Of a stretch of DNA of 64,000 nucleotides, positions 35,489 to 39,815 are shown one piece after another. The translations under genes were made by a program, and so were the position numbers. The DNA lies in the sequence record MH051915; one strand, given 5' to 3'. The stretch is from Enterobacteria phage vB_EcoM_IME339. Below the pieces are notes generated by a model. The model was not told where the DNA came from, ran no database searches, and was given only the letters and a program-made list of their open reading frames with translations. How positions within the stretch are numbered: position 1 is the stretch's first letter; each line of letters begins with the position of its first letter.

Positions 35489-35827
35489 GAAACCGGGTCG
35501 CTACCGGTAAGTCGTCGGACTGATGTTCCCTGGGTAAGGACTGGCATTAACAAATCTTTACGATCTGTTAATGTCCCCTTACATCACAGCAGAAACGGCG
35601 CACAGAATTATCGATTCGAGGAAATATCTTTGCCGTAAGCCGAGTAGCGTTTTTGACGGAACGTTCGGATATGGTCGAGATATGGCCTTTTAAAAATATT
35701 GAGTAGCGTCAACTGCTTAATAACCGGGTTCGAATCCCGGCGTTTCGTACAAACACTTGCCTTAGCAGGTGGAACCCCGACAAGGTTGCCGCAAGGCTTA
35801 GCCCCGACCGAAAGGTTGGGGCTTTTT
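35489..35827 (+). ncRNA. ORF-free structured region; candidate non-coding RNA(s) ending in an intrinsic terminator
   Basis: No ORF of 60 aa or more on either strand; local hairpins (ACCGG-7nt-CCGGT at 35492-35508); canonical tRNA T-arm CCGGG-TTCGAAT-CCCGG at ~35724-35740; duplicated GAGTAGCGT motif; terminator 35801-35827. Confidence 0.3.
35801..35827 (+). terminator. Rho-independent terminator
   Basis: GCCCCGACC-GAAA-GGTTGGGGC stem-loop followed by TTTTT. Confidence 0.75.
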
Positions 35828-35877: not shown

Positions 35878-36351
35878 ATGAAATCATATGCTCAATTTTT
35901 AAATGAAGCGGTGTTAAATGAAGCATCTAGCACCGAAATTCAAGCTGTCGCAAAAGCAGCCATTGCAGCGGGTAAATATTCCTATAAAGATGCTTCTGAC
36001 GAATCACGATTCCAATTTGCTCGCGACATGAAAGCAGAAGGATTTACGGGAAATGCAGTTAGTATGGCCTGGAAAAGTTTAGTTGCTACTGGCGCTGCTT
36101 TTGCAAAGGCTTCGGGTAAACCTGCTCCTAAAGCAGATCCTAAAGCTGCACAAGAAAAAAATATCGTTAAAGGAATTATCTCTAAATATGAAGCTATCCT
36201 TAAAGAGCTTTTAGTAATCAAAACCGAAGGCCAAAAGCTAGCCCGTGCTTATAGTTTCAAAGATAATCCGCATGTTCACTCTCTTGAGTATGTTGAAGAC
36301 ATCCAAAAAATTATTAAAGACCGCATTTGGTCTGCTAAACAAATCAAATAA
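35878..36351 (+). CDS. Internal-protein-like capsid-targeted protein (IPII/IPIII-type leader), function unknown
   Basis: 157 aa; N-terminus MKSYAQFLNE|A matches the T4 capsid targeting sequence and gp21 cleavage motif (L-x-E); Ala/Lys-rich; late promoter upstream; terminator downstream. Confidence 0.75.
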   Translation: MKSYAQFLNEAVLNEASSTEIQAVAKAAIAAGKYSYKDASDESRFQFARDMKAEGFTGNAVSMAWKSLVATGAAFAKASGKPAPKADPKAAQEKNIVKGIISKYEAILKELLVIKTEGQKLARAYSFKDNPHVHSLEYVEDIQKIIKDRIWSAKQIK

Positions 36352-36358
36352 CATTCTT

Positions 36359-36386
36359 AACCCCAGCCGAAAGGTTGGGGCTTTTT
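36359..36386 (+). terminator. Rho-independent terminator
   Basis: CCCCAGCC-GAAA-GGTTGGGG stem-loop plus TTTTT; near-duplicate of the terminator at 35801. Confidence 0.75.
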
Positions 36387-36911: not shown

Positions 36912-37310
36912 ATGAATATTGAAGATAAAGAAATGCGAGAGTTATATAATTCATTAACACCCGAACAACAAAAAGCTGCCAAAGAATTAGAGAAAGCTCT
37001 TAGTTTAAGCTTGACAAAAACTGATTGGGCCGCCGTGTATGAAGAAAAAATGAGGTCTGAAAATGAAGCTATCGAGAGAAATGAATGGATTGTAAACACC
37101 AAGATTAGTTCTGATGGCTGCTCTGTTGAGGTGTCAGCTGTAGTTAAAGGTACTCATGGCGAAGAATCATGGGGCTGGCATAATGAGGCAAACAAATATA
37201 TTGTTCTCTCAACGTCAAAAACTTATGGTCAAAAGGTTCCTGTATCCAAAGCTATTATTAAGCAAGCTCAATGGGAAGCCAATGAAATCTGTCTCGCAAA
37301 AATGAAATAA
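36912..37310 (+). CDS. Hypothetical protein
   Basis: 132 aa; GAGGAGAACATAATG RBS. Confidence 0.55.
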   Translation: MNIEDKEMRELYNSLTPEQQKAAKELEKALSLSLTKTDWAAVYEEKMRSENEAIERNEWIVNTKISSDGCSVEVSAVVKGTHGEESWGWHNEANKYIVLSTSKTYGQKVPVSKAIIKQAQWEANEICLAKMK

Positions 37311-37384
37311 CATGTTTACATTTCTCAAATAACAGGATATAATTCTACACGGATTTTAAATCTTAATCAACCTAAGGAAATATT

Positions 37385-37978
37385 ATGAACACACTGAAGA
37401 AAATTGTTGAGTTTATTCGCACTAAACTTGGTTCTGCTATGGCTAAAAATCTATCTGTCGAAGAACAGTATACTGCTGCAGCAGCAAAACTACTTGATAA
37501 AATTAAAGATCTAAAAACTGCTTCTGTTAAATCTATTAATGAAGAAAAACGTATTCGTGAACTTATTGTCGAAAAGAATCGACAGGCTGAATCAAAAGAG
37601 CGTGAAATTCGTAAACTTCTTTCCGAAGGTCAAGATGTAACAATGCACGCTAAACTCGGCTTGCTATATCGTCGAACGGCTGAGCAGTTGACTACTAAGG
37701 CTGACGGTTATGCTGAAATGCGAATTGAAATCGCTAAGAAAGTAGTTGAGTTAGATGATGCTCGTCAAGAACTTGCAGTTAAATTGGAATATATCCGTGA
37801 AACTCGTGCAGCAAATGCCCTTGGAATTAGTACTGCAGATGATGTAGTTGAAATCGCAGCGCTGACTAAGGTTGATATTGAAGATACCCTTGCTCGAGTT
37901 GAAACCTTTAACGGTAATATTTCCGGGGTTGAAACTACCTCTGCCGATGTCCAGGAATATATTAATTCTCTGAAATAA
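37385..37978 (+). CDS. Coiled-coil protein with weak PspA/IM30-like character (hypothetical)
   Basis: 197 aa, heptad-rich; segments such as DTLARVETF resemble PspA by eye only; early promoter at ~37310-37345. Confidence 0.5.
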
Positions 37979-38019
37979 TGATAAGGGGCTTCGGCCCCTA
38001 TTACTTGGAGTAAATAGGA

Positions 38020-38625
38020 ATGAAAATGCAAAGTGATTTCAATTCAATGTTTGAAGAGTTCCAAAGACAGGTTGATGTTCCAGACCAATTACTAAATGCT
38101 CTTAAACGTATGGCAGAAGGACGTAATTATTATTGGGGGTCTTCATATGAAACTGATGAAAGTCTTTCTGGATTTTATAAAGGTAAAAAGTCTTTAATAC
38201 GTCCTGGAATACTTATTAAAAGTATTGAATCAATTCATTCATTGACATGTGATTTTGATGTTGAATTTACTGATTTCATTTCTCCTGAATGGACAGTTTG
38301 TTATTTAAATGACGATTATGATTATCTTGGCGTTTATAGTTTAAGTGACGCATGGTTTAAACGTAATTTACAAAAGTCAAATTTGTTCTATATTGATACT
38401 ACGGTAAAATTTCAGGGAAAGAAATATTTCTTTACTCTTATAGTTGATTCTGAAACAAAGCATGAAAATAAACGTATTCTTAGCAAAAAGAATATCTTAA
38501 CTATTGTTGATGATCTTTTTGATAAATTCGTGGAAAATCCTAATTTTGAAAGCGATTTATTATTAGAAAAATTTGTTAAGGAATGTAGAGAATATGTCAA
38601 AGCCATCACTATACCTTCCAAGTAA
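38020..38625 (+). CDS. Hypothetical protein
   Basis: 201 aa; hairpin terminator-like element upstream; C-terminus shares the FVKECR junction motif with the next three ORFs. Confidence 0.55.
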   Translation: MKMQSDFNSMFEEFQRQVDVPDQLLNALKRMAEGRNYYWGSSYETDESLSGFYKGKKSLIRPGILIKSIESIHSLTCDFDVEFTDFISPEWTVCYLNDDYDYLGVYSLSDAWFKRNLQKSNLFYIDTTVKFQGKKYFFTLIVDSETKHENKRILSKKNILTIVDDLFDKFVENPNFESDLLLEKFVKECREYVKAITIPSK

Positions 38626-38986
38626 ACCTGTGAAGTATGAATTAAAGCGCCAGCTAATTTCTACTGATGTATTAATAGGTCCTGTTATACTCATATCATT
38701 TGTAATTCTATTGATTATTGGAGGTGTTTTAGATGTTATGACTGATATTGATTCTGGCGAAATACTTGTGTTAATGCTAATTCTTCCATTAATAGTTCCA
38801 CTTTTATTAGTACCTGTAAATTGGATAGGATATTGGTATCAAGGAAGACATTATCGTAAACGTGTACGTGATTGGAAAGCACAGTGTAAAAAGATTAAAA
38901 AGGAACACCAGCTTAAACTTGTTGAGTATGAATTTAATGAAATTATGAAATTTGTTAAGGAATCACGATGCAAAAGCCAAAACTAA
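38594..38986 (+). CDS. Small membrane protein (hypothetical), paralogue family member
   Basis: Track start 38573 is TTG; moved to ATG 38594; two transmembrane helices then a basic tail; C-terminal FVKESR motif. Confidence 0.5.
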   Translation: MSKPSLYLPSKPVKYELKRQLISTDVLIGPVILISFVILLIIGGVLDVMTDIDSGEILVLMLILPLIVPLLLVPVNWIGYWYQGRHYRKRVRDWKAQCKKIKKEHQLKLVEYEFNEIMKFVKESRCKSQN

Positions 38987-39330
38987 ATAAAGTCAAATAT
39001 TCGTTCCCCGAGGCACTATTAATTCTTGCCGTGTCAGTATTTGCAGCTCTTGCTGGTAGTCTTATTGGATTGTTAATTGACTGTATTATTTTAAACATCG
39101 ATGGTTCAGCAATTATAACAGAGGTTTGGAGTGAACTTCGTTTTACTATAGCGATTACATTATTTTCATTCTTTGGTACCATGCTATATTTTCATTATGA
39201 TAATTTTAAAATAAATTGGCAAAGAAAAAAGGATTACAAAATACAATTAAAAGAATATAATAGCTACATGTCTTATATTGAAAATGAATCAATGAAAGAG
39301 TTTGTGAGTGATTGCAGGAAAATCAAATGA
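38968..39330 (+). CDS. Small membrane protein (hypothetical), paralogue family member
   Basis: 120 aa; transmembrane helices; C-terminal EFVSDCRKIK. Confidence 0.5.
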   Translation: MQKPKLNKVKYSFPEALLILAVSVFAALAGSLIGLLIDCIILNIDGSAIITEVWSELRFTIAITLFSFFGTMLYFHYDNFKINWQRKKDYKIQLKEYNSYMSYIENESMKEFVSDCRKIK

Positions 39331-39815
39331 TTTTAAAAACTCGCTGGTATGATTTAGATGACGGGGATGATGGCATTTCAGTTGATAGAGTTGACTGGAA
39401 TGGCTGTTCCGAAGATATGAAAAATTTGCTGATTAGGGAGTTTAGAATGGGATATCAACCAGTTAAGCCATCTACTGCAACAGATGATAAATTCGTGTGT
39501 ATTCATAATGGTCGCGCTAAATTAACGAACGCTGATTGGTTCACAGATAAGATTATGATTCTGTGGTATATTATTAGTTTTCCTGTGACATCATTTGTAT
39601 TTTGCTTCTTTGGAGAAAGTCCAGTAGGCAGAACGGAAGATTGGATTCTTTTAATTATACTTGTTAATATTTTTACAGCAGCAGTACTATCAGGAATATG
39701 GTGCGTGTTCATTGAAATGCCATGGCGGTTACGTAGGCAGCAAAAGATTTTTGATGAAAAGAAATATACTCAAAATTTAAATAATTTTATCACTGAATGC
39801 AGGAAATTAAAATGA
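39327..39815 (+). CDS. Small membrane protein (hypothetical), paralogue family member
   Basis: Track start 39312 is TTG; moved to ATG 39327 (ATGA overlap with upstream stop); transmembrane helices; C-terminal NFITECRKLK. Confidence 0.5.
   Translation: MILKTRWYDLDDGDDGISVDRVDWNGCSEDMKNLLIREFRMGYQPVKPSTATDDKFVCIHNGRAKLTNADWFTDKIMILWYIISFPVTSFVFCFFGESPVGRTEDWILLIILVNIFTAAVLSGIWCVFIEMPWRLRRQQKIFDEKKYTQNLNNFITECRKLK

Follow-up and report, generated by a model that had tools for sequence, protein, structure and literature searches.

The 64,000-nucleotide (nt) stretch of Enterobacteria phage vB_EcoM_IME339 that we analysed (sequence record MH051915, hereafter the window) contains on its plus strand, at positions 37385-37978, an open reading frame (ORF) that runs from an ATG to a stop codon and encodes a protein of 197 amino acids (aa). 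A preliminary description of the window, made from the sequence alone, had assigned to exactly these coordinates a 197-aa protein resembling the PspA/IM30 family. The protein shares 196 of its 197 residues with the product of phage T4 gene e.6 (NP_049742, annotated as "e.6 conserved hypothetical protein"), and the window ORF is the ortholog of that gene. T4 is the reference lytic phage, yet about half of its genes still lack an assigned function; e.6 appears as hypothetical or unknown in the T4 functional-genomics tables of 2022 and 2025, and the family to which its product belongs, PHROG 1203, is annotated as being of unknown function. The evidence presented here indicates that the e.6 family is very probably homologous to the PspA/IM30 superfamily, the bacterial ESCRT-III proteins. 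The gene and the expression signals that accompany it are:

37315-37343, plus strand: sigma-70/T4 early-type promoter, (G)TTTACA, 17 nt, TATAAT (11 of 12 positions)
37374-37378, plus strand: ribosome-binding site AAGGA, 6 nt before the ATG, read from the sequence
37385-37978, plus strand: e.6 coding sequence, 197 aa plus stop (phrog_1203, E = 1e-87), very probably a diverged PspA/IM30-like protein
37984-37999, plus strand: stem-loop AGGGGC-TTCG-GCCCCT from a terminator scan, six bases past the e.6 stop

With an early-type promoter, a ribosome-binding site and a downstream hairpin of its own, e.6 constitutes a self-contained module. The promoter is the top promoter-like match in a scan of the 6 kb between 35500 and 41500, in keeping with the "early" location proposed for the gene; its GTTTACA and -10 boxes are kept in T4 and in the annotated relative ime09, while the flanking sequence and the upstream gene differ. 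The ribosome-binding region, CCTAAGGAAAT, is invariant across the window, T4 and ime09. The downstream stem-loop has a predicted folding energy of -12.7 kcal/mol, which is not exceptional (11 of 200 shuffled sequences fold equally well; z = -1.9), and is not followed by a T-run on the plus strand. The same hairpin sequence has been given as the e.6 terminator in a genome analysis of a T4-like phage (PMC5931544), and we regard it as a candidate transcript-end or stabilising hairpin closing the e.6 module. In time-resolved omics of T4 (PMC9697503, supplementary files 4 and 6), e.6 is classed as "early RNA, middle protein", so that in T4 the protein is both made and detected.

The surroundings of the gene likewise agree with the description of a variable early block, since e.6 lies within the e-segB/tRNA region, between e.8 and the genes of the e.7 slot on one side and e.5-e.2 and nudE on the other. 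In ime09 the same ORF is annotated as gene e.6, flanked by e.8 and a variable ORF and by e.5-e.2, nudE and e. The 3 kb of DNA around e.6 are 94-96% identical to those of many Escherichia and Shigella T4-like (Tequatrovirus) phages. A tblastn search found full-length e.6 homologs, down to about 32% identity, in 1,098 of 50,697 phage records, with hosts that include Escherichia, Klebsiella, Shigella, Aeromonas, Enterobacter, Yersinia, Citrobacter, Salmonella and Cronobacter. Using an alignment and hidden Markov model (HMM) built from 30 close homologs (A1), a search of 1.84 billion representative proteins retrieved only 45 proteins, of which the complete ones are all about 195-209 aa long and the others are fragments. 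The e.6 family is therefore a narrow one of constant length, and it keeps this length down to 18% identity with the window protein.

The window protein was modelled with AlphaFold2 from the close-homolog alignment A1 (mean predicted local distance difference test score, pLDDT, 74.7) and from an alignment of 43 diverse family members reaching down to 18% identity (A2; mean pLDDT 81.3, with 88-98 in the hairpin). Secondary structure assigned by DSSP places helices at residues 3-22, 25-80, 86-145, 151-160, 166-174 and 186-196, covering about 84% of the chain, which fits the preliminary description of an almost entirely helical protein. The description of a heptad-repeat coiled coil stands as far as the helical character goes and gives way as to architecture: the predicted core is one long antiparallel helical hairpin and not a simple parallel coiled coil. 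The parts of the protein are:

37391-37450, plus strand: residues 3-22, N-terminal cationic amphipathic helix, alpha0 equivalent and predicted membrane anchor (AlphaFold2; hhalign to PspA 1-22)
37457-37624, plus strand: residues 25-80, helix alpha1, first hairpin arm (pLDDT 88-98; aligned to PspA/Vipp1 alpha1)
37625-37639, plus strand: residues 81-85 (EGQDV), hairpin tip, the sole break between the two long helices
37640-37819, plus strand: residues 86-145, helix alpha2/3, second hairpin arm (pLDDT 86-94; aligned to PspA 86-141)
37835-37864, plus strand: residues 151-160, short helix, alpha4 equivalent (second AlphaFold2 model, moderate confidence; aligned to PspA 149-158)
37880-37906, plus strand: residues 166-174 (EDTLARVET), short helix, alpha5 equivalent (AlphaFold2; hhalign pairs DTLARVETF with PspA EAMARFESF)
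37940-37972, plus strand: residues 186-196, C-terminal helix with the conserved Y..SLK end (pLDDT about 84)

The layout predicted by these models is the alpha0, alpha1, alpha2-3, alpha4, alpha5 arrangement of PspA and Vipp1. Over residues 2-19 alpha0 has a hydrophobic moment of 0.45 and a charge of +3, compared with moments of 0.42 and 0.57 in the same window of E. coli PspA and Vipp1, respectively, and nearly all of the 43 family members carry a positive charge there (typically +3, range +1 to +5). In these respects the sequence of alpha0 is what one would predict for a helix docking on an anionic membrane surface. In the alignments the EGQDV tip shares its residue numbering with TNGEEN, the tip of Vipp1, and with KERED, that of PspA. 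The most conserved block of the family lies in alpha2/3, where K90, L91, L94 and R96 are invariant among the close relatives. Towards the C-terminus, at least 90% of the 43 family members have Y192, and at least 90% of the 30 close relatives have S195, L196 and K197. The peptide DTLARVETF, singled out earlier as reminiscent of PspA, is indeed present at residues 167-175, and hhalign pairs its TLARVETF with the alpha5 motif AMARFESF of PspA, not with the superficially similar DDTLARMKK of PspA helix 3.

At the level of the family, the connection to PspA/IM30 emerges from sequence searches. When each of the 43 members of A2 was scanned against Pfam, 5 matched PF04012 (PspA_IM30), with a best E-value of 8.9e-10. 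Two of these, P0066 (39.0 bits, E = 8.9e-10) and P0065 (35.1 bits, E = 1.4e-8), exceed the Pfam gathering score of 33.9 bits, matching model positions 2-143. The A1 profile in turn matches both proteins over their full length (E = 1.5e-21 for P0065 and 2.9e-20 for P0066). Their sources are phages of the Ackermannviridae type, about 155-160 kb in size, with Klebsiella, Salmonella and Serratia as hosts; other distant members of the e.6 family map to phages of Erwinia, Serratia and Cronobacter that belong to the T4-like (Straboviridae) or Ackermannviridae families. No family member, nor the window protein itself, matched the Pfam family Snf7. When the A2 profile was searched against all sequences in the PDB, the top match was Vipp1 (8qfv, E = 7.5e-5) and 8 of the 9 best entries were Vipp1 or PspA; the best sequences were Synechocystis and Nostoc Vipp1, with E-values of 7.5e-5 to 2e-3, and the alignment with Vipp1 is colinear (e.6 residues 1-146 with Vipp1 1-147). 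The PspA/IM30 resemblance noted by eye in the preliminary description is thereby borne out through relatives that pass the curated threshold and through Vipp1 as the family profile's top match among PDB sequences.

We also compared A2 directly with a profile (A3) made from the product of E. coli pspA (MG1655), four enterobacterial PspA proteins and Synechocystis Vipp1, the latter taken from the PDB alignment. Hhalign aligned e.6 residues 1-178 with PspA 1-174 at a probability of 92% (E = 5e-7 to 7e-7, score 47.5). Since the PspA homologs found by searching were all from Enterobacterales and at least 78% identical, the PspA profile is low in diversity (effective number of sequences 1.8) and this result is conservative. 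A global alignment extends over e.6 1-197 and PspA 1-214, with about 21 residues fewer in e.6 between alpha5 and the C-terminal motif; this part is of low confidence, and the pairing of the e.6 C-terminal motif with PspA ISEQLAQLK that it contains is weakly supported.

Coiled coils are notorious for false similarity, and controls that preserve composition and periodicity were therefore run. Reversing A3 or A2 lowered the hhalign score from 47.5 to 18.5 and 19.1, respectively, and reversing both, which restores the match, brought it back to 44.7. Sixty column shuffles gave a mean score of 12.5 (standard deviation 2.1, maximum 20.4), and 60 shuffles of 7-column blocks, which respect the heptad, a mean of 14.7 (standard deviation 2.3, maximum 23.7). 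The real score lies about 14 standard deviations above these shuffled backgrounds. The caveat attached to the preliminary description, that the similarity might reflect generic coiled-coil composition, is thus disfavoured, with controls scoring 12-24 as compared to 47.5 for the real alignment.

The model comparison that had been proposed as a check points in the same direction. Searched by Foldseek against a library of 350,542 PDB chains, the A1-based model retrieved Vipp1 as its top 8 matches (best E = 3.7e-4), followed by archaeal CdvB and CdvB2, with PspA (7abk) lower; the A2-based model retrieved Vipp1 as its top 11 (best E = 2.1e-4), followed by CdvB2, with PspA 7abk and CHMP1B lower. The predicted hairpin of the first model superposes on the hairpin-only Vipp1 chain 6zvs_A at 2.8 Å over 120 columns, with a template-modelling (TM) score of 0.71. 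The CdvB and CdvB2 matches have E-values of 0.04-0.1 and that of CHMP1B 0.25, which makes the modelled links to archaeal and eukaryotic ESCRT-III no more than suggestive. Among predicted viral structures (BFVD), the model found its own family first, then a protein of Acinetobacter phage ME3 that UniProt names "PspA/IM30 family protein", and a Snf7 protein of a giant virus.

These comparisons define how e.6 resembles and departs from the known members of the superfamily. It falls in a similar length class to E. coli PspA (197 as compared to 222 aa), its profile alignment to that protein runs colinearly from the first residue up to the C-terminal LK motif, and both have an amphipathic N-terminal helix, a long alpha1/alpha2-3 hairpin with its tip at about residues 81-85, and a related alpha5 motif (ARVETF in e.6, ARFESF in PspA). 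Unlike PspA, to which it is about 14% identical, e.6 is not recognised by PF04012 directly, is about 21 residues shorter between alpha5 and the C-terminus, has a cationic (+3) instead of a neutral alpha0, carries KN(L/T)S(V/I)E in place of the KAEDP linker, and is a gene of virulent phages under an early phage promoter, with no pspF or pspBCDE context. Vipp1 (IM30; Synechocystis sll0617; 7o3w, 6zvr, 8qfv) is its best PDB match both by sequence profile (E = 7.5e-5) and by structure (E = 2e-4), shares a tip glycine at the same position (G82 in e.6) and, like e.6, stands without Psp partner genes; in contrast to Vipp1, e.6 lacks the C-terminal extension (helix alpha6) and any thylakoid context, and its alpha4-alpha5 region is shortened.

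The Ackermannviridae-type PspA_IM30 proteins connect the e.6 family to PF04012. P0066 is about 85% identical to a protein of Klebsiella phage vB_KpnM-Zahir and is related to Salmonella phage Se-S. These proteins match the e.6 profile directly (E of about 1e-20), are about 202 aa long and are annotated, like e.6, as "hypothetical protein". They differ from it in being 22-25% identical to the window protein, in having different neighbouring genes, and in retaining enough ancestral signal (for example an N-terminal ...EANVN motif) to pass the PF04012 threshold. The proteins of Acinetobacter phage vB_AbaM_ME3 (A0A172Q0S7) and of the giant virus (Snf7) are also virus-encoded members of the superfamily, with fold-search E-values of 8e-3 and 1e-2, respectively; at 229 and 268 aa they are longer than e.6 and are not detectable by sequence as its relatives, and they are probably independent acquisitions.

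Several results weigh against reading e.6 as a membrane-protecting PspA relative. The window protein alone does not match PF04012 even at E<=10, finds no match among PDB sequences, and has no PspA or LiaH match in NCBIfam, so that we do not call it a recognised PF04012 member; the assignment rests on family-level and transitive evidence. Identity between e.6 and PspA in the alignment is only 13-15%, and the Pfam and PDB matches span alpha0-alpha3 only, the C-terminal third being shortened and aligned with low confidence. Whole-chain Foldseek TM-scores are modest (0.41-0.56) and the root-mean-square deviations large, much of which could reflect open versus closed conformations and a different placement of the flexible alpha0, alpha4 and alpha5. 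No Psp component was found near e.6, its neighbours (e.8, the e.7-slot ORF, e.5-e.2 and nudE) having no Pfam match to one, and no neighbour is conserved between the T4-like and the Ackermannviridae-type e.6 loci. Finally, in a genome-wide dCas13d knock-down screen in T4, where its function is entered as "Unknown", e.6 was scored "Not Fit", with no fitness defect in the laboratory (PMC11879866, supplements), which implies that any protective role is conditional.

The low single-sequence signal also extends to other searches. An hhalign comparison of the close-homolog alignment with the single E. coli PspA sequence was negative (probability 0.5%), and the window protein alone gave weak, scattered matches to coiled-coil families (USP8_interact, Seryl_tRNA_N, Rz-like spanin) at E-values of 0.05-0.2; many members of the family also match unrelated coiled-coil families weakly. 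The Rz-like spanin candidate was rejected, as the match to phrog_1267 (E = 0.22) lacks significance and neither a lipobox nor a transmembrane segment is present in the protein. The PspA link is visible only with a diverse family profile and a combined PspA and Vipp1 profile. As to a significant hit to PspA/IM30 profiles, on which the preliminary description had made the resemblance depend, the single sequence gives none and the family-level link is significant.

On the strength of the members that pass PF04012, the profile-profile comparison and the fold, we file e.6 as a diverged viral PspA/IM30 variant. Association with pspF, pspB and pspC is not required in the wider PspA family, and Vipp1 occurs without it; having neither Psp partners nor a conserved neighbour, e.6 is a stand-alone gene of the same kind. 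The explanation that best accounts for the results overall, and one that we consider rather probable, is that the e.6 family is a diverged, shortened, virus-specific branch of PspA/IM30 (Vipp1) that protects the membrane during infection.

By analogy with PspA and Vipp1, for which membrane binding by alpha0, polymerisation through the hairpin and suppression of proton leak are established (PMC7619361, PMC11237479, and general knowledge), we give about even chances to a role in which e.6 binds the inner membrane and stabilises it during the shut-off of host transcription. Its alpha0 would bind the cytoplasmic face of the inner membrane, and the protein would polymerise via the hairpin into a coat or ring that could seal or stabilise the stressed membrane, preserving the proton-motive force and keeping the cell energised. 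The host psp response is dependent on sigma-54 and PspF. Because T4 shuts off host transcription globally (PMC9697503), the infected cell is probably unable to induce its own psp operon, and the phage may for that reason supply the membrane-protecting effector itself, e.6 filling the gap. Such protection might act after DNA injection, against membrane-damaging host responses, or while phage membrane proteins and holin accumulate, when it would avoid premature triggering; the membrane protection during lysis inhibition suggested in the preliminary description is a plausible instance, again by analogy. In its broadest form, which we put forward tentatively and hold to be somewhat doubtful, this would mean that Straboviridae (T4-like) and Ackermannviridae phages carry an early-made ESCRT-III-type membrane-repair protein that replaces the silenced phage-shock response, keeping the inner membrane energised until programmed lysis and perhaps blunting depolarising suicide effectors.

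A homologous e.6 could alternatively act as a PspA mimic, interfering with the host Psp system instead of protecting the membrane directly. It might bind PspF, as PspA does, and block psp induction, titrate PspB/PspC, or co-polymerise with host PspA in a dominant-negative or redirecting manner. The homology covers alpha0-alpha3, the part of E. coli PspA solved in 4whe (residues 1-144), which presumably includes the PspF-interacting surface; the C-terminal third, which contacts neighbouring subunits in ESCRT-III-type polymers, is the most altered part of e.6, and viral mimics of host regulators are common (general knowledge). Blocking PspF-dependent transcription would, however, add little in a cell whose transcription T4 has already shut off globally (PMC9697503), the family extends with large sequence drift to phages of Aeromonas, Serratia, Erwinia and Klebsiella, and the conserved amphipathic alpha0 argues that membrane binding is the selected property. 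We therefore consider mimicry unlikely.

Another possibility is that the PspA-like coat serves counter-defence and not phage housekeeping, neutralising abortive-infection effectors that depolarise or perforate the inner membrane, pore- or channel-forming ones for instance; this would be a specialisation of the same biochemical activity as membrane stabilisation. In its favour, e.6 belongs to a hyperplastic accessory region, where it forms a promoter-to-hairpin module of the type described for shuffled T4-like accessory genes (the PeSL concept, PMC4122927), is expressed early, is dispensable on the laboratory host, as is usual for anti-defence genes, and has a wide but patchy distribution in two families of large virulent phages. 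Nevertheless, e.6 is far more conserved (1,098 T4-like records) than most strain-specific anti-defence genes, it receives no mention in an accessory-gene screening study, and no match to defence or anti-defence resources turned up, although no search was aimed at them, so that counter-defence as the primary role seems improbable to us. That e.6 is a generic coiled coil evolutionarily unrelated to PspA, such as a scaffold, a spanin-like protein or a "host specificity protein", would explain the weak, scattered coiled-coil matches of the single sequence and of many members and the name given in some records, but is very improbable given the reversed and heptad-block-shuffled controls (12-24 as compared to 47.5), an alignment colinear from residue 1 to the C-terminus, the two members above the curated Pfam threshold, the ranking of Vipp1 above every other helical protein in the PDB library, the lack of a signal peptide or transmembrane segment as found in spanins, expression that is early and not late, and a "host specificity" label that no search supported.

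If membrane protection by a diverged PspA/IM30 protein is confirmed, e.6 would be the first functionally defined viral PspA and would point to a widespread phage strategy of membrane maintenance. A real protective role would bear on lysis timing, lysis inhibition and possibly the evasion of membrane-targeting abortive infection. The placement with PspA, Vipp1 and ESCRT-III offers a concrete testable hypothesis, that of a phage-encoded membrane-stabilising polymer, and ties phage biology to the recently unified bacterial ESCRT-III field. Canonical E. coli PspA had tblastn matches in only 2 of the 50,697 phage records, both of them unannotated metagenomic contigs; as it is almost absent from phages, the e.6 family appears to be the principal phage lineage of the superfamily. 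Routine annotation has thus missed the main phage PspA-like lineage, in about 1,100 T4-like records and further Ackermannviridae records. Full-text literature searches, which leave most subscription journals outside, found no earlier assignment of e.6 to PspA, and the recent reviews of the PspA/ESCRT-III superfamily that we consulted contain no discussion of phage homologs. Some related phage proteins are already labelled PspA in Pfam or UniProt, and phage PspA-like proteins are in this sense known to the databases; the novelty lies in placing the T4 e.6 family among them, in how broad that family is, and in the hypothesis on its function.

Database records of e.6 show some irregularities. Several GenBank and UniRef entries label e.6 orthologs "host specificity protein", a name that found no support in the searches made; early expression disfavours a role as a virion adhesin. 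As e.6 is expressed early and is PspA-like, the name looks like a propagated annotation error. Two short public protein clusters, P0029 and P0048, are 72-99% identical to e.6 over its N-terminal 84-111 residues and carry unrelated Pfam domains (PF02774, and PF17782 with PF01978, respectively); they are probably chimeric or mis-assembled metagenomic gene calls and not real fusions. An 88-aa ORF on the opposite strand (37765-38031, minus strand) lies inside or opposite the strongly conserved gene and was treated as spurious.

A conserved operon of e.6 with a partner gene was considered and rejected, since e.5 and the upstream ORF have no counterpart beside the Ackermannviridae-type homolog and the neighbours carry no Pfam domains. 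No AAA ATPase that could be a Vps4-type partner adjoins e.6, the search for one having been limited to the adjacent genes. The slot upstream of e.6 (36912-37310, plus strand) holds a 132-aa ORF in the window and in ime09 and the 111-aa e.7 in T4, and upstream of the e.6 promoter the window and T4 have unrelated DNA. This slot has the appearance of a gene cassette that was replaced, with the conserved e.6 promoter as its boundary.

Further upstream, two similar hairpins with GC-rich stems and a GAAA tetraloop are each followed by a T-run and have the form of terminators:

35800-35823, plus strand: terminator hairpin AGCCCCGACC-GAAA-GGTTGGGGCT
36361-36380, plus strand: terminator hairpin CCCCAGCC-GAAA-GGTTGGGG

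The second of these follows a 157-aa ORF (35878-36351) that is absent from T4 at this place, and it resembles a hairpin given after "RNA C" in a T4-like phage (PMC5931544).

Downstream of e.6, between 38560 and 39820, four genes end in similar peptides (FVKECREY..., FVKESRCK..., FVSDCRKIK and FITECRKLK). At the e.4/e.3, e.3/e.2 and e.2/nudE junctions the start of the following gene (ATGCA(G/A) or TTGCAG) has a 19-nt overlap with the gene before it; with the ATG at 38594 taken as the start of e.4, the overlap of e.5 and e.4 comes to about 32 nt. The DNA at the junctions is repeated, with 80% identity between 39301-39330 and 39786-39815 and full identity (16/16) between 38569-38584 and 38948-38963. 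The products of e.4, e.3 and e.2 look like paralogous small membrane proteins, and the junction repeats could serve recombination, in tandem duplication or shuffling, or else be a common signal for translational coupling. The e.2 ORF (39312-39815, plus strand) encodes 167 aa from a TTG at 39312, compared with about 162 aa annotated in ime09 and 102 aa in T4; either its N-terminus is extended in this lineage, or the start differs or a fusion has occurred.

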